Positions 3,163-23,313 of a stretch of 23,313 nt of DNA are shown here, piece after piece (position 1 is the first letter of the stretch; every line of letters starts with the position of its first letter). A program made the position numbers and the translations under genes. Below the pieces are notes generated by a model. That model saw only the letters and a program-made list of their open reading frames with translations. It ran no database searches and was not told the origin of the DNA. This DNA is from a virus. Its lineage: Duplodnaviria; Heunggongvirae; Uroviricota; Caudoviricetes. The stretch lies in IMG/VR virus record IMGVR_UViG_2602041905_000003; one strand, given 5' to 3'.

Positions 3163-3347
3163 ACGCCACAATTCAAACGATACCAGAGCTTCTTATCCAG
3201 ACACGAGGCAATCAGACCGAAGTGGCAAGGATGCTTTCCTGCGCAAGAGGAACAGTGCTCAAGTACAACCGAGACAGCAAAGGCGAGCGTCACGTAATAG
3301 TTAACGGCGTCCTGATGGTCAAACAGGGCAAAAGGGGAAGGCCATGA
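3159..3347 (+). CDS. ninH: NinH-like small DNA-binding protein
   Basis: 62-aa translation ...GNQTEVARMLSCARGTVLKYNRD...VIVNGVLMV matches remembered lambda NinH (GNQTEVARRL.CSRGTVRKY). Overlapping start/stop with neighbours. Confidence 0.75.
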   Translation: MNATIQTIPELLIQTRGNQTEVARMLSCARGTVLKYNRDSKGERHVIVNGVLMVKQGKRGRP

Positions 3348-3967
3348 GACTCGAAAGCGCAGCTAAATTTCATTCGCCAAAAAGCCCGATGATGAGCGAC
3401 TCACCACGGGCTACGGCTTCTGACTCTCTTTCCGGTACTGATGTGATGGCTGCTATGGGGATGGCGCAATCACAAGCCGGATTCGGAATGGCTGCATTCT
3501 GTGGTAAGCACGAACTCAGCCAGAACGACAAACAAAAGGCTATCAACTATCTGATGCAATTTGCACACAAGGTATCGGGGAAATACCGTGGCGTTGCAAA
3601 GCTTGAAGGAAATACTAAGGCAAAGGTACTGCAAGTGCTCGCAACATTCGCTTATGCGGATTATTGCCGTAGTGCCGCGACGCCGGGCGCAAGATGCAGA
3701 GATTGCCACGGTACAGGCCGTGCGGTTGATATAGCCAAAACAGAGCAGTGGGGGAGAGTTGTTGAGAAAGAGTGCGGAAGATGCAAAGGTGTCGGCTATT
3801 CAAGAATGCCAGCAAGCGCCGCATATCGCGCTGTAACGATGCTAATCCCAAACCTTACTCAACCCACCTGGTCACGCACTGTTAAGCCGCTGTATGACGC
3901 TCTGGTGGTGCAATGCCACAAAGAAGAGTCAATCGCAGACAACATTTTGAATGCGGTCACACGTTAA
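3344..3967 (+). CDS. Q: Late-gene antiterminator Q (lambda Q type)
   Basis: 207-aa translation appears nearly identical to remembered lambda Q, including the zinc-binding Cys pairs (CRDCHG...CGRCKG). ATG overlaps ninH stop. Confidence 0.95.
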   Translation: MRLESAAKFHSPKSPMMSDSPRATASDSLSGTDVMAAMGMAQSQAGFGMAAFCGKHELSQNDKQKAINYLMQFAHKVSGKYRGVAKLEGNTKAKVLQVLATFAYADYCRSAATPGARCRDCHGTGRAVDIAKTEQWGRVVEKECGRCKGVGYSRMPASAAYRAVTMLIPNLTQPTWSRTVKPLYDALVVQCHKEESIADNILNAVTR

Positions 3968-4241: not shown

Positions 4242-4316
4242 GGGTCAGTCGTATAAAGGTCATTACGGAAGGCTGTTAACCTTCTTATCGTGGTTCGAGT
4301 CCACGCTGTCCCGCCA
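4242..4316 (+). tRNA. tRNA-Asn (anticodon GUU), with atypical D-arm and acceptor stem
   Basis: Hand-folded: anticodon stem gaagg/ccttc, loop cTGTTaa (GTT); T-arm cgtgg-TTCGAGT-ccacg; acceptor gggtcag/ctgtccc with one U.U mismatch; discriminator G; CCA encoded. D-stem is only 3-4 bp. Needs tRNAscan-SE. Confidence 0.5.
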
Positions 4317-4321
4317 AATAT

Positions 4322-4397
4322 GCTGGTTTAGCTCCAATGGTAGAGCGGTCGCCTTGTAAGCGAATGGGTAGCGGTTCAAGTCCGTTAACCAGCACCA
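4322..4397 (+). tRNA. tRNA-Thr (anticodon UGU)
   Basis: Hand-folded cloverleaf: acceptor gctggtt/aaccagc, U8-A9, D-arm gctc-caatggta-gagc, anticodon stem gtcgc/gcga(a) with loop cTTGTaa (TGT), T-arm agcgg-TTCAAGT-ccgtt, discriminator A, CCA encoded. Confidence 0.7.
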
Positions 4398-5887: not shown

Positions 5888-6062
5888 TAGCGATAATTTT
5901 ACTCATCATCCTTCACATCTGGCTCTGTAGACAGGGTGATGATCACTTCTGGAGTGAATCCAGATTAAACATCTCATTGCTGATGCTTGATATTGAGCAT
6001 CTTGCGCGCAGTAAGGGGCTGCGTTGAGATAAGAGCCAGTTCATTACAAATACCAGGATTTA

Positions 6063-6087
6063 GCCTCGCATTCGCGGGGCTTTTTAT
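6063..6087 (+). terminator. Candidate intrinsic terminator downstream of lysis cassette
   Basis: 7-bp stem gcctcgc/gcggggc (one G.U) with attc loop followed by ttttta. Confidence 0.45.
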
Positions 6088-6229
6088 ATCTGAATTTCAC
6101 AGCGCATCTCACGCGCATATTAACGAGAGCCTTTCAGTAAGCGAGCCTGAGAAATGCCGTTATAGGTGGCGACCTCTCTCGGGCGGCTTTTCTGTGAGAC
6201 AGGCTCACTTTCTAAAAGGTAAAGACGCT

Positions 6230-6754
6230 ATGAATAATCATTCAGTTATTCCAGCCTTCGACTTCCGAGAAATGGTGCAAGCCAAAAACGGAGAGGTCGT
6301 TACCACATCCAGAAAAATTGCCAAGTACTTCGGCAAGCGACACGGTGATGTTCTCAGGAAAATCGAGCAGGTTAAGGCTGATTGCTCGCGTGAGTTTAGC
6401 CAACGCAATTTTGCGTCGGCTGATTATATCGATGAGCAGGGCAAGGTTCGCCCGATGTACAGCCTGACGAAAGATGGCTGGATCATGGTTGTGATGGGGT
6501 TCACCGGGAAAGCTGCTGCGGCAATCAAGGAGAGCTATATCGCAGCATTCAACTGGATGGCAGAGCAACTGAGCCGCCGCATGGCAATTGGCGAAGAAAT
6601 GCAGCACCGCTACGCCATCAAAGAAACACGCTCAAAGCTGAAAGGTACGATCGGCAGTCGGTTAATGAACGAACGGAAGAAAGAGAAGCGTGTCCTGGCT
6701 GTCGAGCATGAATACATCTTGCAGGTGACACAGCCTGAACTGCTGATTAATTGA
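6230..6754 (+). CDS. rha: Rha-family phage regulatory protein
   Basis: Translation from ATG 6230 (MNNHSVIPAFDFREMVQAKNGEVVTTSRKIAKYFGKRHGDVLRKIEQ...) has the pattern I associate with the Phage_pRha N-terminal domain. The track ORF from 5987 is an upstream in-frame extension without convincing coding character. Confidence 0.65.
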   Translation: MNNHSVIPAFDFREMVQAKNGEVVTTSRKIAKYFGKRHGDVLRKIEQVKADCSREFSQRNFASADYIDEQGKVRPMYSLTKDGWIMVVMGFTGKAAAAIKESYIAAFNWMAEQLSRRMAIGEEMQHRYAIKETRSKLKGTIGSRLMNERKKEKRVLAVEHEYILQVTQPELLIN

Positions 6755-9153: not shown

Positions 9154-11352
9154 ATGGCAGAAAAAAAGATGACTGACTGGCATCGCAAGGTGCTGTGCAA
9201 CTTTGATAATGCCTGGTCAGCAACGCAGGATATGCGTGAGCAGATTATTGAGGCTCAGCGTTTCGTCCGGGTGTCCGGCGCACAGTGGGAAGGCAGCACA
9301 AACGCTGGTTACTCATTTGATGAAGGCAGGTTTGAGCATTATCCGCGTTTTGAACTGAATAAGATTTCCCGTGAATGTGATCGCATCATTGGCGAGTATC
9401 GACAGAATCGCATCAGCGTTAAATTCAGGCCGAAGGATGACAAGGCATCGGAAGCTTTAGCCGAAAAAATGAACGGCAAATTCCGCGCTGACTATCAGGA
9501 AACATCCGGTGGCGAAGCGTGTGATAACGCATTTGATGATGCCGTAACGGGTGGATTCGGTTGTTTCCGCATGTGTGCCGATTACGAAGATGAAATGGAT
9601 CCGAGTAACGAGCAGCGCCGCATCAGCCTTCTTCCTGTTTACGACCCAGCGACATGCGTCTTCTTTGATCAGGACAGCAAGCAATATGACCGCTCTGATG
9701 CTATGTGGGCTATGGAAATGTTCTCCATGACGCCTAAAGCGTTCGAGGCTGAATACCCTGATTCCATCGCGGCAAGCCTTTCTCGTGATGACACTGGCAC
9801 TCAATATGACTGGTCAACGCCAGATGCCATCTATGTTGGACGTTACTACGAAGTCCGCATAGAGAAGGTGAAGCTCACGGCGTGGCGCAACCCTGTTAGC
9901 GGAGAAACGGCAATCTATGATGAAGATCAAATCAAAGATATTGTCGACGAGCTAACCGATGGCGCATTCGAACTGATTGGTGAGCGAACGGTGAAGAAAC
10001 GCCGCGTTTATTGCGGCCTTCTGTCTGGCGCTGAATGGCTGGAAGAACCGAAGCGTATTCCGGGCGAACATATTCCACTCATCCCGGTATATGGGCGTCG
10101 CTCATTTGTTGATAATCAGGAGCGAATCGAAGGCCACGCAGCAAAAGCGATGGATGCACAGCGTCTTGAGAACCTGATGGTTTCCATGATTGCAGATAAC
10201 GCCACTCAGGCTGGCGGTGATGGCATTCCTATCGTGGATGTTGATTTCATTCCCGGCCCATTAATGAATCACTGGGCAGAGAGGAATAAGAAAAGACCTG
10301 CAGTTCTTCCTATGACCAGCAAGAAGGACAAAAACGGAACAGTCATTTCAGAAGCTCAGGTTGCTGGCTGGACACCTCCGACACAAATGCCGCCAGCTCT
10401 TGCCGGGCTATTGCAGTACACCGGAACGGCTATTCAGCAAATTACAGGTGCGTCGCAGCTTGAGAACATGCCGAGCAACGTCGCTACCGATACCGTTGAT
10501 AGCATCTTTAACCGGATGGACACGCAGTCCTATATCTACATGGACAACATGGCTAAATCCATGCGCCGTGCTGGCGTCGTGTGGCTTTCTATGGCTCGTG
10601 AAGTCTATGGCAGCGATACGCCAATGCGCATCGTTAATGAGGATGGCAGCGATGACGTGGCGCTGATGACTGGTGAAGTGGTTGACCGTCAGACAGGGCA
10701 GGTTATCGCGCTTAACGACCTTTCGCAGGGTAACTATGAAGTGACTGTCGATGTCGGTCAGTCGTTCGCTACTCGCCGTGACGCAACGGTTAAGTCGTTA
10801 CTTTCCATGCTGGCACTTATCCCGCCCGGAACGCCGAAACACGACCTTGTATCGTCGATGATCCTCGACAATATGGACGGCGAAGGGATGGACGACCTTA
10901 AAGAATACAACCGCAATCAGTTGCTTCTGTCTGGAGTTATCAAGCCGAGAACGCCAGAAGAACAGCAGATGGTTGAGCAGGCGAAACAACAACAGGCCAG
11001 TCAGCCAGATCCGGCTATGGTTGCTGCGCAAGGTCAGCTTCTTGCTGGTCAGGCTGAATTGCAGAAAGCGCAGAACGAGCAGGCAGCCATTCAGGTTAAA
11101 GCATTCCAGGCACAGACTGATGCTCAGGTTGCAGCGGCAAATGTTGTGAAAATCCTCGCATCTGCCGATAGCCAGCAGAAATCTGATATCCGCGAGGCTC
11201 TGAAACTGCTCGGACAGTTCCAGCAACAGCAAGGAGACAATGCCCGTGCTGATGCAGAGCTTGTCCTGAAAAGTCAGGCACAGGGCCATGCGCAGCGCAT
11301 GGACATCAGCAGCATCCTGCAAAAATCAACTCAGCAACAACCACAGCAGTAA
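9154..11352 (+). CDS. Portal protein (P22 gp1-like)
   Basis: 732 aa; blocks such as GEHIPLIPVYG and the C-terminal Gln-rich helical tail (PEEQQ...AQGQLLAGQAELQKAQNEQ...RMDISSILQ) parallel remembered P22 portal. Confidence 0.95.
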   Translation: MAEKKMTDWHRKVLCNFDNAWSATQDMREQIIEAQRFVRVSGAQWEGSTNAGYSFDEGRFEHYPRFELNKISRECDRIIGEYRQNRISVKFRPKDDKASEALAEKMNGKFRADYQETSGGEACDNAFDDAVTGGFGCFRMCADYEDEMDPSNEQRRISLLPVYDPATCVFFDQDSKQYDRSDAMWAMEMFSMTPKAFEAEYPDSIAASLSRDDTGTQYDWSTPDAIYVGRYYEVRIEKVKLTAWRNPVSGETAIYDEDQIKDIVDELTDGAFELIGERTVKKRRVYCGLLSGAEWLEEPKRIPGEHIPLIPVYGRRSFVDNQERIEGHAAKAMDAQRLENLMVSMIADNATQAGGDGIPIVDVDFIPGPLMNHWAERNKKRPAVLPMTSKKDKNGTVISEAQVAGWTPPTQMPPALAGLLQYTGTAIQQITGASQLENMPSNVATDTVDSIFNRMDTQSYIYMDNMAKSMRRAGVVWLSMAREVYGSDTPMRIVNEDGSDDVALMTGEVVDRQTGQVIALNDLSQGNYEVTVDVGQSFATRRDATVKSLLSMLALIPPGTPKHDLVSSMILDNMDGEGMDDLKEYNRNQLLLSGVIKPRTPEEQQMVEQAKQQQASQPDPAMVAAQGQLLAGQAELQKAQNEQAAIQVKAFQAQTDAQVAAANVVKILASADSQQKSDIREALKLLGQFQQQQGDNARADAELVLKSQAQGHAQRMDISSILQKSTQQQPQQ

Positions 11353-11442
11353 TTAACCCATAACGTGCAATGGCTGTCTTTATGAGGCCTGGCACCCTAT
11401 TGCCTTCCGATGGGCTGAACATCGAGTAAACAGGGGTAACAA

Positions 11443-12336
11443 ATGGACCAGATGGCAGAAAACACACCAGAAGTTGAAATCGAAACCGACGCGTCAGAGC
11501 AGATTCCTGATGATGTCGAACTGGCTGAAAAAGTCGAAACAGAAGATGGCAGTGAGTCCTCAGGCAATGATGCAGAGGAGGCTACTGAAACTGATGACGA
11601 CGAATCAGAACAGGAATTCTACTTTGGTGACGAAAAGCTGGATTCGACAACCAGCGAAGATGGCGCTGAGCATGGACTGGTAAAACACCTGCGCAAGACG
11701 ATTAAAGAGAAAGACCGCGAGCTGAAAGAGCTGATGCGTCAGTCTCAGAAACCCGTCGAGCAGCAGCCGGTAATCACTCAACCACCGCGAATGCCAAAAC
11801 TGGATGATGAGGACATCGGTTTCGATGAAGAAATCTACCAGCAACGCATGGCTAAGTGGGCAGAGGATAATGGCAAGTACCAGCAACAGGAGATGGCTCG
11901 CAAGCAGAAGGAGCAGGAGCTTCAGGCTGCCTATCAAGAGCGATTATCCAAATATCAGCAACGTGTTAAGGCTCTCAAAGTTCCTGGCTATCAGGAAGCT
12001 GAGCAGGCCGTACTCGAGGAAATCCCCATCGAGACACAAAACGCGATCCTGTTTGAGTCAGAGAAGCCGGAAATCGTTGTTCTGGCGCTTGGTCGCAACG
12101 CTGAACTGCGCAAGCAACTGGCAGAAGCTACCAACCCCGTAGCAATTGGTCGTCTGCTGGAACGTATCGAATCGAAGGCCAGAATCATGCCAAAAGCAAA
12201 AACCACGGCAGCCACAACCCCGACGGTTAAGGGGAGCAACGGCGCAGTAATCAACAACCTCGACAAATTGAAAGCCAAGGCGCTGGAAACTGGTGACTGG
12301 ACGCCGTATTTCGCCGCTAAAAAGGCAAAAAAATAA
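11443..12336 (+). CDS. Scaffolding protein (P22 gp8-like)
   Basis: 297 aa, highly acidic N-terminus, coiled-coil-like middle, basic C-terminal end; located between portal and coat. Confidence 0.85.
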   Translation: MDQMAENTPEVEIETDASEQIPDDVELAEKVETEDGSESSGNDAEEATETDDDESEQEFYFGDEKLDSTTSEDGAEHGLVKHLRKTIKEKDRELKELMRQSQKPVEQQPVITQPPRMPKLDDEDIGFDEEIYQQRMAKWAEDNGKYQQQEMARKQKEQELQAAYQERLSKYQQRVKALKVPGYQEAEQAVLEEIPIETQNAILFESEKPEIVVLALGRNAELRKQLAEATNPVAIGRLLERIESKARIMPKAKTTAATTPTVKGSNGAVINNLDKLKAKALETGDWTPYFAAKKAKK

Positions 12337-12354
12337 CCTATTGGAGCATTAAGC

Positions 12355-13571
12355 ATGGCTAACCAATTAGCAAAAGACCTTGAAATCATGTTCGAAAACT
12401 ACGTTGAAGGCTTTGAGGCCGCCTGCGTAGTTTCCCGTAACGCTAAAAAATTCCGTCCCGGTGATACAGCAATGCAGCGAGCAGGTGATGTTCTGTATCG
12501 TCCGCAGCATTACCACATGAATATTGAGGAAGGCCTCGACCTCAGCAGCAAAACGCCAACAGCACTGGTTCAGCGCCTTGTTCCTTCAGTGTTCAAGGAG
12601 CCGAAAAACATTCTGTACACTCTGGATGCGCGTGAAATGCGTGATCCGGAACATAAAACTGAAGCTGGTCGCGCCGCAGGTATGCGCCTTGCTGCACAGA
12701 TTGACTCTGACCTGATTTCCATGGTCACGCAGCGTGCTACTAACGTGATCACGATGGCTGACTCAACCGCAGGTACACAGGGCCGTGATTTGTGGAACTG
12801 TGCGGCAGGTATTGATGCCACCATGACGGCGATTGGTGTACCTCAGGGTATCAACCGTCGCTCTTTCTGGAACCCCTTCAACTACAAAGACCTTGCTGGC
12901 GAGCTTGGTCACCGTGCCTATGCTCAGGGCGCAACCCTGACAGCATACGAAAAAGCGCAAATCCCTCCGGTTGCGTCCTTCGATAGCTACAAGACCGATA
13001 TTTCTGGTCGATTACCGAAAGGAAGCACTGAATCCTTGACAGTATCAGGCCAACCTGAACACAAGGTTGAAGCGAAAGATTCAAATGGTATGCCAGTTGA
13101 TAACCGACAGGGGACTATTACGGTATCTGCATCTGGCTTGCAGGTTGGTGATGCGTTCACCATTGCCGGTGTGAATTCCGTACACCAGATCACAAAAGAT
13201 ACCACCGGTCAACCGCAGGTATTCCGTGTTCTGGCTGTTAGCGGAACTACCGTAACAATTTCTCCAAAGATTCTCCCTGTTGAAAATACTGATGTTGCGA
13301 GTCGTCCATATGCAAACGTCGATGCCAAACCGGCAGAATCAGCAGCAATCACCATTCTCAACAAGAACGCAGCACCTGCTAACCTCTTCTGGGCTGATGG
13401 TTCTGTTGAGCTGATGTACGGCAAACTGGCATTCCCGACAGGTCAGGGTCCACAGGTAATGACAGCAACCACCGAGCAGGGNNNNNNNNNNCCACTGCTC
13501 GTTTCACCACTCTGTACGGTTGCTCTGTACTTGTTCCTGAATATACGGGCATCGTTATTGCCGGGCAGTAA
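12355..13571 (+). CDS. Major capsid (coat) protein, P22 gp5-like; contains 10-N assembly gap at 13482-13491
   Basis: Translation resembles P22 coat (e.g. NLFWADGSVEL). After the N-run the correct frame reads ...TARFTTLYGCSVLVPEYTGIVIAGQ and stops at TAA 13569-13571; the track's extension to 13635 is a gap-induced frame artefact. Confidence 0.9.
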
Positions 13572-13578
13572 TTTTGGT

Positions 13579-13598
13579 GGGGCTTCGGCCCCATTTTT
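13579..13598 (+). terminator. Intrinsic terminator/attenuator after coat gene
   Basis: ggggc-UUCG-gcccc hairpin (13579-13592) followed by attttta. Confidence 0.55.
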
Positions 13599-13612
13599 AT
13601 TGGGAGAAGACA

Positions 13613-13801
13613 ATGGCACGAACAATGCTCTATAAGCCTGGCAACATGATCACCTGTGGTCAGTTTGCTGTCGATTACGTCATTGTTGATGACGAAGAAG
13701 TTAAATCTCACCTGAAAAAAGGTTGGGTAAAAACTCCTGAAGAAACCGCAACGAAGCAAAAAGTGGCTAAGGCGGAAGAAGATGGCGAAAACGAAGGGTG
13801 A
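13613..13801 (+). CDS. Small hypothetical virion-module protein (62 aa)
   Basis: ATG 13613 preceded by GGGAGAAG; acidic C-terminus; overlaps start of the gp4-like gene. Confidence 0.5.
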   Translation: MARTMLYKPGNMITCGQFAVDYVIVDDEEVKSHLKKGWVKTPEETATKQKVAKAEEDGENEG

Positions 13802-17528: not shown

Positions 17529-18944
17529 ATGGCTACGTGGCAACAGGGTATTAATTCTGGTGGTTTTCTGGCTGGCATCGGTACGCAAAATGAGAATGCG
17601 CCAAAGGCAAGCGACATTAACGCAACGCTTGGTCTGATCCGCGAAAACAATGAACTGGCTCGCTCAGGTGCAAATAACATTGGTCTGACCGCGTTACGTG
17701 GTCTGGCTGGAGTTGCTGATATTTACAATCAGGAACAGCAACAGAAAGCTATTAGTGCGTTCAATAAGGTTCACGCTGATGCATGGGCTTCTGGTGATCC
17801 ATCTGGACTATTTAAGTTTGCCCAGGAAAATCCAGCGTTTGTTGCACAGGCACAACAGGCGTTTTCCGGTCTTAATGAGCAGCAACGCAACGATATGGGC
17901 GATTTAGCCATGAGGGCTAACGTCGCTCTTTCCCAGGGACCGGAAGCCTACAGTAAATTCATTACTGACAACAAGGACAGGTTAAATCGCGTGGGGGCGA
18001 ATGCTGACTGGATGATTCAGACAGGTATCCAGAATCCAGAGCAGCTATCACACATGCTGACTACTATGTCTCTCGGTGCGCTTGGACCAGAAAAGGCGTT
18101 TGCTGTTCAGGACAAGATGGCTGGTCGTGAAATTGACCGAGGCAAACTGGCAGAGACAATCCGCAGCAATCAGGCTGGAGAAGCACTTCAGGCGAGAGGG
18201 CAAAACCTTTCCTATCAGTCAGCAATGACTGGGCACAATATCGCAGCACAACGCTTGGCTCTGGATCAGCAAGAGTTCGGGTTTAAGATGCAGCAAGCGC
18301 AGGAAAAGGCTCAGCAGTTGATTAGTGAAGCACCTAAGCTGTCAGTAAACATGGAAAAAGGCATCGAGACGGCTGTAAACAATGCCACAGCATCATCAAA
18401 CTCAGCCAATTCTATGAGTGCGCTTGCTCAACAGTTCAGAGCAGAAAAACCAACGACAGGTTTGTTCGGTAACGCACAGAACATGTTCGCAAAACTTACC
18501 GGAAGCGATACGACATTGCGTGATTTGCGCATCCGCCAAAATGCCCTTGTTAACAGTCAGGTTCTTAAATTCCTACCTCCCGGCCCAGCAACGGATAAAG
18601 ACGTTGAGATCGTTCGACAGGGTGCGCCAACTGACATGGATAACCCTGAGACGGTCGCAAGATGGCTTGATGCAATGGCAAACCTTGAGCGACGAAACGC
18701 GCAGTTTAATGAGTTTAAAGCCGAGTGGATGAGCGCGAATGGCAACCCTGGACAATCGCGTAATGGCGGTCAGATATTGGGGTTGGATGTTAAAAAAGGT
18801 GAATCACTGGGGAGTGCCGTTAAGCGGTATATGTCAATGAATACTGACGCAGCGCCAGCACAAGATTCGACACCTTCAGGAGAACCACGGAATCAGGTTG
18901 GATCATATACCTCAAAATCAGGCATTCAATTTACGGTGGAATGA
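17529..18944 (+). CDS. Ejection protein, P22 gp20-like
   Basis: 471 aa, same length and position as P22 gp20. Confidence 0.8.
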
Positions 18945-20770
18945 TGAAAGTAACTGCAAACGGTAAGACATTTACCTTTCCTGATGGTACGAGCACCGAA
19001 GATATTGGGGCCGCCATTGATGAGTATTTTGCTGGTCAGGCTGTTCAGCAACAAACAGTTAATCAGGCCAATAATGCACCAACACGGGAAGAACCATCAT
19101 TGATGCAACAAGCTGGCGATTGGCTCACAGGTGGTCAAAGTGCAGGGCAAATTGCAGAACAGGCTGGTCGTGGTCTGGTAAACATACCATTTGACGTATT
19201 GCAGGGTGGCGCAAGTCTGATTAATGCAATCAGTCAGGGGCTTGGTGGTCCAAAAGTATTGGATGATGTCTATCGTCCAGTCGATCGACCGACAGACCCT
19301 TATGCGCAAACTGGAGAAACAATTGGCGGGTATTTAGTTCCAGGAGTTGGAACGGCAGGAAGCATGGCTATTGGATCACTGGCAGAGGCCGCAAATCAGA
19401 AAGGCGATTTCGCACAAAATGCAGCAAAAAATGCCGGAGTTAACCTTGCCGCTCAGGGGGTTCTTTCCGCAGCAGCAAAGGGAATAGGGCGTGGAATAAC
19501 GGCTATAAAAGGTGATATTGCGCCAGAAGTGGCGAAGAAAATTGCCACATCAGAATCGATGGGCGTGACACCAATGACATCTGATGTTATCCCGCCGAAA
19601 AATGCTTTCACTCGCGGCCTTACTCAGGATGCCGAGGGGGCTTTGCTCGGGACAGGTTCAAAGCGTGCGGAGCAATATGCAAAAAGAAGTCAGCTAGTTA
19701 AAAAACAGCTTGAGAAATATGGTGAATATAGCCCATCAGTTGTTGTTGACGATCTGTATGGTTCTCTGAAGTCAAGGAAGGATTCAGCTGGAAGCGTTAT
19801 TGAAGACATTACAACTAAAATGGGAGATACACCTGTTGACACATCAAAATCCATTAAGGTTATCGACAACGTGCTTACCAGGGCTAACAGGCTTGGGAAA
19901 GTGGCAAATAAGGATTTGATTCGCGGGCTATCCGATTTGCGAGAAGAGCTTGCTAAACCAGATGTAGATTTTGGACTATTGAGAGAGTTGCGGTCAGCAT
20001 TAAGGGAAAGTATTCAGGGAGATGCCATGGTTTTTCCTAATAGCGCGAAAGCCGCAACTGATGCCGTGGAGAGGGCAATGGGTTCAGATTTGAGGAATAA
20101 CGCAGCACGGTATTTGGGGGCTGGAGAGGCTGCCAGATACGTCAAAGCAAACTCTGACTACTCCAACGTCTTCAATAAGGTTCTCAATAAAAGGATTGCG
20201 AACAATCTCAACAAAGCTAAAAAAGAGTTTACTCCAGAGCTAATAAACAGCGTTGTATTCAGCAGAAAACCATCAGATATTAAGAGGATATGGCCTGCTC
20301 TTAGTGAAGATGGAAAGAACGCTATGCGTGCTGCTTATATTAGCAAGATTGCAGAAAAGGCAGGAGACTCGCCAACAAAATTTCTTACCGAGTTAAATAA
20401 GTTGAAGTCGCAATCTGACGGTCAGATATATAACACGATATTCAGTGGGAGACACATGAAAGAGCTTGATGCTCTTCATGAAGTTCTACAGCAAACAGCA
20501 AGGTCAGACATCGCAAATGTTGTAACTCAGACAGGGCAATCGCAAGCCAACAGGATAAGGACGATTGGCGCAACTGCGACTCTTGGGGCAACACTGGCGC
20601 TTGAATCTGGTTTCGGTACAATGATGCGCCTGTATGAGTCCAAAGCAACAAGGAATGCGCTCTTACGTCTGGCAAACACTAAAGCTGGAACGCCAGCTTA
20701 TGAAAGAGCGCTGAATAATGCTGCGAATGCCATCAGACCGCTGTTTGCTACTGAGGCAACACAGCAGTAA
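18941..20770 (+). CDS. Ejection protein, P22 gp16-like
   Basis: 609 aa, same length and position as P22 gp16; ATGA overlap with upstream gene. Confidence 0.8.
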
Positions 20771-20794: not shown

Positions 20795-21184
20795 TTAACA
20801 TTTTCTTTTTACTTTTCCAACAAAAGCTTTGGTTGAATCCATATTTCCATAACCGGAAATGGTTTTTGACATTAAAACTGTTCCAGTAGGATGTATTACC
20901 CATGAGTCGATAACGCGTTGAGTTTCGCCATTTGCGCCGATTCCTATGATGGAGTTTTTAGACAATGCTTTGTAAGCCATGCCGCCCGCATCTGCCCCAG
21001 AATATGTGATGCTGGCATCTTCACCGCTTGTCTTAATGATGAATGTTCCACTAAAACCATCTTCTTCTGGTTGGAAATTATTTCGTTCTGAATAGCTTAT
21101 TCCGCGCATATCTCCAACTACCCAGCACTCTGCTGTAGCCCCAAAAGATATGAATAAGAACATAGCAGCAAGAAATTGCCTCAC
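20795..21184 (-). CDS. Secreted (periplasmic) protein of unknown function, 129 aa; accessory/moron gene
   Basis: GTG start with AGGAGG Shine-Dalgarno 5 nt upstream on the - strand; N-terminal signal peptide (MRQFLAAMFLFISFGATA with AxA cleavage site before ECW); AT-rich; convergent with gp16. Confidence 0.6.
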   Translation of the reverse strand: MRQFLAAMFLFISFGATAECWVVGDMRGISYSERNNFQPEEDGFSGTFIIKTSGEDASITYSGADAGGMAYKALSKNSIIGIGANGETQRVIDSWVIHPTGTVLMSKTISGYGNMDSTKAFVGKVKRKC

Positions 21185-21552: not shown

Positions 21553-22002
21553 ATGTTTATGCTCACTTGTTTTGATGTCGCCGACTACTTCTTGGCGCAT
21601 TGCGATGAAGAAAGTGGCGACATTATCTCTAACCTAAAAATTCAGAAGTTGACGTATTATGCCCAAGGGTTTTCTCTGGTTCTTCTGGGTAAGCCGCTAT
21701 TTAATGAGAAAATTGAAGCCTGGATGCATGGGCCAGTAGTTCCTGAATTGTATCGTAAATATAGGGACTGTGGTAACGGAGCTTTACCTGCGCCAGAAAA
21801 CTTTGACGCTAAAAAATTCAGTGAAGATGAAATTGAATTGCTGGATGAGGTGTATAAAGTTTATGGTCAGTTTTCTGCCTGGAAACTGCGCAATATGACT
21901 CACGAAGAGCAGCCATGGAAAGATGCTTACATTGAGGGTGCGGTTAGCCAAGAAATCACACTTGATTCTATGAAAGGTTTTTTCAAAACGTTAATTAACT
22001 GA
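21553..22002 (+). CDS. Panacea-domain protein (DUF4065; GepA/SocA/PanA-like phage-associated antitoxin-type protein)
   Basis: Translation MFMLTCFDVADYFLAHCDEESGDIISNLKIQKLTYYAQGFSLVLLGKPLFNEKIEAWMHGPVVPELYRKY follows the conserved pattern I recall for COG3600/DUF4065 (...KLQKLLYFAQG...G.PLF...IEAW..GPV.P.VY). GGAGG at 21547-21551 suggests the real start may be the second ATG at 21559. Confidence 0.8.
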   Translation: MFMLTCFDVADYFLAHCDEESGDIISNLKIQKLTYYAQGFSLVLLGKPLFNEKIEAWMHGPVVPELYRKYRDCGNGALPAPENFDAKKFSEDEIELLDEVYKVYGQFSAWKLRNMTHEEQPWKDAYIEGAVSQEITLDSMKGFFKTLIN

Positions 22003-22007
22003 CGTGT

Positions 22008-22430
22008 ATGTCTAGAGTTAAGGGAAGAATAAAACAGAGGGATAAAGAGAGCTCTGCTACTGTTGGCCTCTCTATCCATCACGAATCTCATGATGTAGAC
22101 AAAAGTCCGCCTGTATTTTCTCTTAGATACCTACAAAAGGGGTATTGCCTAGATTGCTGCCAAAAGCATGAAAAGGCAGCATTTGCAGATAGGCTGTTCA
22201 GGTTAAGTCAGATGTCATGGGATGAGATACGAAAATCTGATAAACACGGGCTTGGGACGGAAAAAATTGCCAGAAACGCGATAAAGGCTCCGATTCCTAA
22301 GCATGTTACTCAAGATGTGGATTTCATTGCGTTCAGATTTTGCTCTAAGGCACCTATGGTTGGTTATAAGATAGGAGCCACTTTTTATGTCTTATGGCTC
22401 GACAGGGAGTTCAAGCTATACAAGCACTAA
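22008..22430 (+). CDS. Unclassified 140-aa protein co-transcribed with the Panacea gene (candidate toxin/effector partner)
   Basis: ORF begins 5 nt after the Panacea gene stop, same strand, followed by a strong terminator. No family recognised; start codon uncertain (no clear Shine-Dalgarno). Confidence 0.55.
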   Translation: MSRVKGRIKQRDKESSATVGLSIHHESHDVDKSPPVFSLRYLQKGYCLDCCQKHEKAAFADRLFRLSQMSWDEIRKSDKHGLGTEKIARNAIKAPIPKHVTQDVDFIAFRFCSKAPMVGYKIGATFYVLWLDREFKLYKH

Positions 22431-22432
22431 TA

Positions 22433-22458
22433 AAACCCACCGTCAGGTGGGTTTTTTA
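22433..22458. terminator. Bidirectional intrinsic terminator between convergent accessory operons
   Basis: aaacccacc-gtca-ggtgggttt perfect hairpin with A-run on 5' side and T-run on 3' side; lies between the + strand Panacea operon end (22430) and the - strand ClpP-like gene end (22483). Confidence 0.8.
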
Positions 22459-22482
22459 TAAGGAGTAATCATGATTTACCCA

Positions 22483-23019
22483 TCAAACAACCCACCAGTT
22501 TGCCTGATTGGATGCCAGCCTTGCAGTTTTTATGGAATTAATTATGCCATGCTCAAGAGCCTTGTTAGCATCCAAAATGGTCGAGTCTGCTATCAGGGAT
22601 GCCCACCTAATATGGGTTCCGATGTCGATATTGAACGTCTCAACGAAGCGATCAAGATCGTTATCGAGGCATTTCCCGTACTCTCTCAATCTGGCATGGT
22701 CGGCGGCTGGGGAGGCAAAGCCCCATAATAGAGGATGTAACAGGAATCTTGATAATGGGTTTGCGAAACGTTCTGAGCCAGCCAGGAAAACGATATTAGC
22801 TATGGATTCAACATTGCTTATGTTGTGAGTTCTAACGGTAACAGGGAGTGACTTAAGAAAGTTATACGCAGTAAAGCCAGCGGCAGTTTCCCCTCCCTGA
22901 CTTGATATATGGATATTTAATTCAGTTGCGCCTTGAGATAATGCGGTGAGACAGTGGTTCTGAAGTTGCCCAACAGTGGCAGTGTTAACGGGGCATAAGA
23001 AATGAATTGTGTGCAGCAT
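22483..23019 (-). CDS. ClpP-fold serine protease-like protein (truncated S14-type, 178 aa)
   Basis: Translation aligns by eye with E. coli ClpP core: IHISSQGGETAAG vs INSPGGVITAG; NVESIANIVFLAG vs GQAASMGAFLLTAG (Ser retained); RFANPLSRFLLHPLLWG vs RFCLPNSRVMIHQPLGG (His retained); later Asp retained. Lacks about 60 N-terminal residues of canonical ClpP. ATG overlaps the upstream RHH gene stop (TAATG). Confidence 0.75.
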   Translation of the reverse strand: MLHTIHFLCPVNTATVGQLQNHCLTALSQGATELNIHISSQGGETAAGFTAYNFLKSLPVTVRTHNISNVESIANIVFLAGSERFANPLSRFLLHPLLWGFASPAADHARLREYGKCLDNDLDRFVETFNIDIGTHIRWASLIADSTILDANKALEHGIINSIKTARLASNQANWWVV

Positions 23020-23267
23020 TATTTTTCATCCTTACCATACATGGTCTTTAGCGTCTCAAGCAGCGCCTCTTTGAATTTGTCAGCTTCTTGCTGAGCAAAT
23101 GACTCAACTGACTTTGGCGACCTATCTTCATCAATCGCGGCTTGCAAAATCATGACGATCTCGGAGTTAACAGAGCGACCATTTTTTGATGCTCTGACAG
23201 CAAGAGCCTCGCGTAAAGATTCAGGGATTCTTACCGTAGTTGGAGAAATTGACACACCCTTTGCCAT
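23019..23267 (-). CDS. Ribbon-helix-helix transcriptional repressor, Mnt/Arc-like
   Basis: 82 aa; N-terminal ...TVRIPESLREALAVRASKNGRSVNSEIVMILQAAIDE matches the Arc/Mnt RHH signature (NGRS.NSE) and is Mnt-like in length; AAGGTG Shine-Dalgarno upstream on the - strand. Confidence 0.8.
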   Translation of the reverse strand: MAKGVSISPTTVRIPESLREALAVRASKNGRSVNSEIVMILQAAIDEDRSPKSVESFAQQEADKFKEALLETLKTMYGKDEK

Positions 23268-23313
23268 ATCACACCTTTGGTATTCAATTTGATATCAAAG
23301 TGTATGCAAAAAA

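Follow-up and report, generated by a model that had tools for sequence, protein, structure and literature searches.

The DNA described here is a stretch of 23,313 nucleotides from a virus of the class Caudoviricetes (IMG/VR record IMGVR_UViG_2602041905_000003), referred to as the window at its full length, and the subject is a pair of overlapping minus-strand genes near its end. The upstream gene of the pair, taken from the open reading frame (ORF) list, is mnt-like (23019–23267; stop codon TAA at 23021–23019) and encodes a ribbon-helix-helix (RHH) maintenance repressor of 82 residues. It is followed by a short ClpP-like gene (22483–23019; stop codon at 22485–22483), the product of which is an N-terminally truncated serine peptidase subunit of 178 residues with the ClpP fold.

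The window is the genome of a P22-like (Lederbergvirus-type) phage, with a P22-type large terminase, portal and coat protein, a gp10-type stabilisation protein and the ejection proteins gp7 and gp20; the gene-16 position is occupied by the gene of a 609-residue protein (18941–20770). Near-identical loci were found in phages EC.P3, E212 and phiv205-1. Just past the end of the window, and divergent from the pair, lie an Arc gene, a small ORF, an antirepressor gene and a tailspike gene (loci L001, L002 and L004), in agreement with the P22 immI location proposed in the initial annotation; the locus is the maintenance (leftward) arm of the immI, or "ant moron", region of a P22-like phage. The divergent control region of mnt and arc-ant begins at 23268 and is cut by the window end at 23313. 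It continues in locus L001 (7088–7201), where a promoter-like site facing arc (TTGACT-17-TATCTT) and the palindrome TTGATATCAA were found. The immI region is known as a rapidly changing variable region, which holds sieA, orf59a and hkcC in P22 (PMC2629481; PMC10883804). Other P22-like phages carry different cargo after mnt, or a terminator alone.

The mnt stop codon and the ATG of the ClpP-like gene (23019–23017) have one base in common. The resulting TAATG (23017–23021) was read from the minus strand as ...GAA AAA TAATG CTG..., within the longer stretch GGTAAGGATGAAAAATAATGCTGCAC; both ORFs exist, and the overlap of RHH stop and protease start was confirmed. A Shine–Dalgarno (SD) motif for the ClpP-like gene, AAGGA, is located within the 3′ end of mnt, 9 nt 5′ of the ATG (23029–23033, minus strand), and is kept in the copies from Pectobacterium (L071), PhiR12 (L003) and Providencia (L075 and L076). 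The TAATG overlap recurs in the Pectobacterium and PhiR12 copies, with a 30-nt spacer instead in Providencia. Pattern scans gave no promoter-like or terminator-like site from the mnt start to the start of the ClpP-like gene. About 25 nt past the stop codon of the ClpP-like gene, a GC-rich hairpin with U/T runs on both strands (22432–22459; arms AAAACCCACC-GTCA-GGTGGGTTTT) was missed by a simple terminator pattern scan but is supported by RNA folding (minus strand, −18.9 kcal/mol, z −2.86). It is probably a bidirectional terminator, which serves the mnt-clpP transcript as well as the convergent operon of a Panacea-domain gene. On account of the TAATG overlap, the hairpin after the second gene and the lack of any promoter- or terminator-like site in the scanned interval, the earlier description of a translationally coupled unit, made up of an Mnt-like RHH gene and an N-terminally truncated ClpP-fold gene, is correct. 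Two plus-strand ORFs (85 and 106 residues) run antisense within the ClpP-like gene (22471–22828); they are most likely spurious, because the minus-strand frame is strongly conserved.

The 82-residue protein matched Pfam Arc (PF03869, E 9.6e-11), and its best relative in the Protein Data Bank (PDB) was the Mnt repressor (1MNT, E 2.3e-6, query residues 12–73). Comparison by BLASTP with P22 Mnt gave 36 % identity over residues 11–79, the C-terminal helix included. The protein also scored on the Pfam model FitA-like_RHH, and a scan against PADLOC-DB v2 returned a chance-level match to BrxA alone (0.028). Since it is Mnt-like over its full length and has arc-ant opposite, the RHH protein is, judged by its sequence, an ordinary Mnt maintenance repressor facing arc-ant, and not a dedicated protease partner or antitoxin.

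The 178-residue protein was placed in the ClpP (peptidase S14) family by profile search, as the initial annotation had supposed, with 46.6 bits on Pfam CLP_protease (PF00574) against a cut-off of 20.2 bits (E 4.8e-12). It fell below the cut-off of the canonical-ClpP model TIGR00493 (22 vs. 308.6 bits) and below that of the NCBIfam head-maturation protease model NF045542 (49.6 vs. 120 bits); its best PHROG match was the head maturation protease phrog_94 (E 1.5e-21). By PDB sequence search, entry 9UXT was matched over residues 3–175 with E 2.8e-35, compared with 2e-8 for the next entries. This entry is ClpP1 of Pseudomonas plecoglossicida (PpClpP1; PLoS Pathog 2026, PMC12900304). An AlphaFold2 model of the monomer, built from 34 homologues, had a predicted local distance difference test (pLDDT) score of 93.1 and contained a long handle helix (residues 108–132). 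Foldseek ranked 9uxt_A first (template modelling (TM) score 0.93, root mean square deviation 1.7 Å, 38 % identity), and E. coli ClpP (1YG6) gave a TM score of 0.83; sequence identity to E. coli ClpP is about 21–25 %. The first residues align with the E. coli ClpP strand at about 27–33, and some 26 residues, comprising the axial loops and helix A, are missing, which bears out the earlier statement that the N-terminal axial and docking region is absent. The protein belongs to a short ClpP paralogue family typified by PpClpP1, and an exhaustive search with a profile of this family collected 292 clusters at 50 % identity (E<1e-30).

Active-site residues were followed in two alignments. The first set the window protein against PpClpP1, E. 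coli ClpP and 34 homologues; the second comprised 144 sequences, that is, 142 representatives of the 50 %-identity clusters together with PpClpP1 and E. coli ClpP. Ser72 (codon 22804–22806, minus strand), which corresponds to Ser97 of E. coli ClpP and Ser73 of PpClpP1, is invariant in all 144 sequences, and so is His95 (codon 22735–22737, minus strand), the counterpart of E. coli His122 and PpClpP1 His96. The canonical third-triad position (E. coli Asp171) is occupied by Ser146, the codon of which follows that of Asp145 (22582–22587 for the two, minus strand). In the column of Asp171 the residues are chiefly Gly (61 of 144) and Ala (30), followed by Arg (10), Pro (8) and Ser (7), with Asp in three sequences. 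The intact Ser-His-Asp triad of the initial annotation was therefore not upheld; the residue taken for the triad Asp was probably Asp145, which is not conserved, even among enterobacterial homologues, its column holding Glu, Gln, Gly, Lys, Ala and others among the 144 sequences and Asp, Asn, Gln, Lys or Ser in close homologues. As far as the alignment tells, the short ClpP family is a Ser-His family from which the triad Asp has been lost family-wide. Glu71 (codon 22807–22809, minus strand), just before the nucleophile, is acidic in 116 of the 144 sequences (Ala in E. coli ClpP) and might compensate for the absent Asp. The docking pocket for the IGF/LGF loops of ClpX and ClpA on E. coli ClpP is lined by the three aromatic residues Y60, Y62 and F82. 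These align with N35, H37 and S57 in the window protein, which thus lacks the hydrophobic docking pocket, in keeping with the experiments in which PpClpP1 did not bind ClpX.

For PpClpP1 itself, an N-terminal truncation and a homotetradecamer with an axial pore of 42.7 Å have been described, and of its Ser-His-Pro "triad" the Ser and His were essential, the third residue dispensable (PMC12900304). The third-position Pro of 9UXT is residue 150 by our alignment count and P151 in that paper; Ser73 and His96 agree. The peptidase activity was 13-fold below that of the canonical paralogue and ClpX was not bound, but with canonical ClpP a heterotetradecamer was formed, which bound ClpX and was somewhat more active; the deletion mutant had defects in growth and motility (PMC12900304).

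The whole 785-bp pair was found in 78 of 5426 complete E. coli genomes (about 1.4 %), on the chromosome in every case. For the ClpP-like gene, comparison with the copy in Pectobacterium gave a ratio of nonsynonymous to synonymous substitution rates (dN/dS) of 0.08, dS being saturated for more distant copies, and the gene is under strong purifying selection. Given this ratio and the 78 genomes, the pair and its coding conservation exceed what is expected by chance. In Pectobacterium prophages, Mnt is followed by a ClpP-like gene (80 % identical) with the same overlap as in the window, and in Providencia prophages the ClpP-like member of the pair is 66 % identical. Phages PhiR12_1, PhiR12_4 and PhiR12_5 carry the whole ant-arc/mnt-ClpP cassette between the lambda-type tail genes L and K (in the siphovirus PhiR12_1 at L003 2525–4537). 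The PhiR12 ClpP-like gene is 98 % identical to that of the window, its Mnt only 66 %, a difference that locates a recombination joint close to the 3′ end of mnt. Overall, the Mnt partners differ greatly, with scores of 22 to 97 bits against that of the window, but the ClpP-like proteins keep 66–99 % identity, a sign that recombination brings the cargo gene behind different alleles of mnt.

In at least nine prophage contexts outside immI, the gene was found alone and always antisense to its neighbours, and its homologues there are 53–75 % identical. In Leclercia (75 % identical), Klebsiella, E. coli and Rahnella it has lysis genes on one side and terminase genes on the other; in Proteus it adjoins the N gene, and in Erwinia a Rha-family gene (Rha/ORF11CD3 antirepressor type). 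The Chromobacterium copy separates tail-fibre from lysis genes and the Pantoea copy tape-measure from DNA-circulation genes, and in a metagenome-assembled genome of the Enterobacterales the gene lies amid tail and baseplate genes. Each stand-alone copy that was checked has a GGAG-type SD of its own. A phmmer search with Mnt detected no RHH gene adjoining the ClpP-like gene in about 55 non-immI loci; the two adjoin in P22-type immI contexts only. Conservation of the gene pair, which the initial annotation had named as a point to check, was thus found within P22-type immI regions (E. coli, Pectobacterium and Providencia) and was lacking in the other loci. The Pseudomonas orthologues, that is, the PpClpP1 clade (L065–L070, 4000–6300), are chromosomal, with no phage genes nearby, and are flanked by genes for KGG-repeat stress proteins and DUF6555; this suggests a stress-regulon context, which is not discussed in the PpClpP1 paper. 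When neighbouring ORFs were clustered across 51 genome loci, no conserved partner (unfoldase, adaptor or second ClpP) emerged, and synteny was confined to Pseudomonas; ORF calling was naive, and in the high-GC DNA it produced many spurious ORFs.

In the phage context, the ClpP-like gene behaves as a classical moron, autonomous, horizontally exchanged and antisense between phage modules, and this placement is the arrangement expected for expression from a prophage. With moderate confidence we favour the explanation that it is a lysogen-expressed moron, which encodes an accessory, gate-less ClpP subunit and rides on the mnt transcript in P22-like immI regions. Slotted in behind mnt, the gene would be driven in the lysogen by the maintenance promoter; Mnt would lend this promoter only and would not be a partner of the protease. 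By analogy with PpClpP1, the protein may form heptameric rings with a wide, ungated pore and would have no unfoldase docking of its own. Its role would then be that of an accessory subunit with peptidase activity: it could assemble by itself into a weakly active homo-14-mer or, more usefully, stack on a host ClpP ring, in which case host ClpX or ClpA would feed substrates into the hybrid chamber. E. coli has one ClpP, so a second ring supplied by a phage would give rise to a hybrid protease. What the prophage would gain is an altered proteolysis in the lysogen, which could be of use in phage competition or exclusion, in the stabilisation of lysogeny or in fitness under stress; control of Ant or Arc, exclusion or defence, and a stress-fitness effect as in Pseudomonas are all compatible with the data.

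A superinfection-exclusion or anti-phage effector, in which an ungated protease degrades proteins of the incoming phage (unfolded during ejection, or early) or triggers abortive infection from the sieA slot, overlaps with the moron explanation rather than excluding it, and as a specific function it is rather unlikely. The antisense, moron-like placement in every prophage context seen would suit such an effector, as would the position beside N in Proteus, an area in which P22 carries sieB. A probable PanA-type toxin-antitoxin pair adjoins in the window, and the variable region between gene 16 and mnt is the place of sieA in P22 (PMC2629481; PMC10883804). However, no PADLOC model was matched and no literature on the gene was found, PpClpP1 has weak peptidase activity and does not degrade proteins when standing alone, and the Pseudomonas orthologues are housekeeping-like chromosomal genes. 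A narrower role as an immI-specific regulator, by which the protease would remove leaked Ant or Arc as a post-translational lock on lysogeny, is suggested by the constant company of mnt, arc and antirepressor genes in P22-like phages and PhiR12 and by the antirepressor-type neighbour in Erwinia. It is improbable, as the 53–75 %-identical homologues lie between lysis and terminase genes, in tail modules or next to N and have no adjoining antirepressor gene, and many P22-like immI regions work without a ClpP-like gene. The replacement of Y60, Y62 and F82 by Asn, His and Ser and the missing axial loops, together with the absent canonical Asp, the low activity of its relative PpClpP1 and the failure of the latter to bind ClpX, could also describe a ClpR-like modulator or inhibitor, which caps or poisons host ClpP rings and so stabilises ClpXP and ClpAP substrates. 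This, too, has a low probability: the invariance of Ser72 and His95 argues for selected catalysis, and the PpClpP1P2 hybrid is more active, not less.

The protease-based toxin-antitoxin-like pair proposed in the initial annotation, with an RHH protein that neutralises a toxic protease or autoregulates it, draws on the overlap of an RHH gene with a downstream gene, which is typical of type II toxin-antitoxin operons, and on the FitA-like_RHH score. It is nevertheless very improbable and was rejected because of the distribution data: the ClpP-like gene lives without any RHH in other prophages and on Pseudomonas chromosomes, and its Mnt partners vary widely, whereas the ClpP-like proteins themselves remain 66–80 % identical. 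In addition, the RHH protein is a genuine homologue of Mnt over its full length, with arc-ant opposite. The least credible of the alternatives, with a probability close to nil, is a decayed, functionless remnant of a ClpP-type head-maturation protease, to which the phrog_94 match and the annotation in phiv205-1 point. The gene lies outside the head module, in which the portal, scaffold and coat genes (9154–13635) are of P22 type with no protease gene among them; the NF045542 score is far from its cut-off, the fold is predicted with high confidence, and the functionless-remnant reading is refuted by the conservation pattern (dN/dS and the invariant Ser and His). The annotation in phiv205-1 as a head-maturation protease was itself ruled out by location, score and P22 biology; P22-type capsids are known to assemble without a protease.

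Several points weigh against the accessory-subunit moron that we favour. That the gene is co-transcribed with mnt and expressed in the lysogen is deduced from the layout of the genes and the precedent of P22, and the oligomeric state, like any contact with the ClpP of E. coli, is an extrapolation from a Pseudomonas protein of 38–40 % identity. Neither casein nor GFP-ssrA was degraded by PpClpP1 on its own, and in the hybrid it made only a small difference (PMC12900304). The Pseudomonas relatives are chromosomal with stress-gene synteny, and their role need not carry over to the prophage copies; in addition, with no PADLOC match (the 178-residue protein had none at E≤1 in a scan of five local proteins) and no conserved partner gene across phyla, no specific substrate is indicated.

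A bolder form of the same explanation, which we put forward as speculative and unlikely, would be that temperate phages of the Enterobacterales spread a gate-less, unfoldase-blind ClpP subunit that forms hybrids with the host ClpP and thereby serves as an exclusion, defence or lysogeny-stabilising device; such a device would work through the hijacked compartmentalised protease of the host and not through a nuclease, a membrane protein or an NADase. If hybrids with the host ClpP were indeed formed, lysogeny would alter the regulated proteolysis of the host, which would be a kind of lysogenic conversion not yet explored. Work on ClpXP and ClpAP takes E. coli as its reference organism, and the species is assumed to have a single ClpP; about 1.4 % of its complete genomes carry a second, phage-borne ClpP-like subunit, which the Prokaryotic Genome Annotation Pipeline (PGAP) labels "ATP-dependent Clp protease proteolytic subunit". 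In annotation, neither "head-maturation protease" nor "ATP-dependent ClpP" is right for the gene, and the adjoining RHH gene is mnt, not an antitoxin. The newly solved PpClpP1 now sits in a large family (the 292 clusters), carried by prophages within the Enterobacterales.

The initial annotation knew of no RHH-plus-ClpP-like pair in immI regions, and our search of the available library found no paper that describes one; nor was a paper on a prophage ClpP-like gene found in the literature on ClpP-like genes in prophages, P22-like phages and immI, and the epsilon34 and SieA papers on the P22-type immI region mention no Clp gene. Both mnt and the layout of immI are ordinary, and the short-ClpP family was already known, its first member having been characterised in 2026. 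What appears to be undescribed is that prophages carry such a gene, that it is inserted in the mnt operon and that the catalytic Asp is lost across the family, a modest but real addition.

Further genes of the window were annotated as follows. Convergent with the mnt-clpP pair, a SocA/Panacea-domain protein of 149 residues (Pfam PF13274, E 2e-24) and, 5 nt on, a protein of 140 residues are encoded at 21553–22430 (plus strand); the latter matched phrog_8366 (E 1e-75) and, weakly, NCBIfam MAG6450 and PADLOC NsnC, and had no PDB relative. The two are probably a PanA-type antitoxin and its toxin. SocA of Caulobacter is a ClpXP adaptor; a functional link between the ClpP-like gene and its SocA/Panacea neighbour was considered and dismissed, as the Panacea gene does not adjoin in the PhiR12 cassette, in Pectobacterium or in Providencia. 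Directly after the gene-16 homologue, a 129-residue protein with an N-terminal signal-peptide-like segment (20795–21184, minus strand; phrog_2651, E 2e-60, no Pfam match) represents further cargo of the variable region. Rfam yielded two tRNA genes only, tRNA-Asn(GTT) and tRNA-Thr(TGT) (4242–4397, plus strand), both far from the mnt-ClpP locus and just downstream of a Q-type antiterminator gene (3344–3967). Between the tRNA and terminase genes, a Rha-family regulatory gene (5987–6754, plus strand; Pfam Phage_pRha, E 4e-28) occupies a typical moron or antirepressor position.

Compared with known systems, the locus follows P22 immI (mnt, arc, sar and ant) in its site between the gene-16 homologue and the tailspike gene, in the divergence of mnt from arc-ant and in the accessory genes on the mnt side, but P22 has orf59a and sieA at the place of the ClpP-like gene. 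With the head-maturation proteases (NF045542, phrog_94), the 178-residue protein shares a ClpP fold without axial loops and its best PHROG similarity; it differs in its score below the cut-off, in the lack of a scaffold or capsid extension and in the location of its gene outside the head module. Accessory ClpP paralogues that work in mixed rings include ClpP2 of P. aeruginosa, ClpP1 of Listeria, ClpP1P2 of Mycobacterium and the cyanobacterial ClpR. These resemble the window protein as second, divergent subunits with a weakened or altered active site, and stacking on a canonical ClpP ring, which bears the unfoldase-docking features, is needed by them or stimulates them; they are, however, host genes that co-evolved with their partner, whereas here the subunit would arrive with a temperate phage in a recipient, E. 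coli, that has one ClpP only. The closest counterpart is PpClpP1, of similar length (183 vs. 178 residues), with the same N-terminal truncation, the same conserved Ser and His and a third position that is likewise not Asp (Pro in PpClpP1, Ser in the window protein). The 14-mer, the hybrid with ClpP and the activity are known for PpClpP1 only, and the PpClpP1 gene is chromosomal in Pseudomonas, whereas the window gene is prophage cargo behind mnt.

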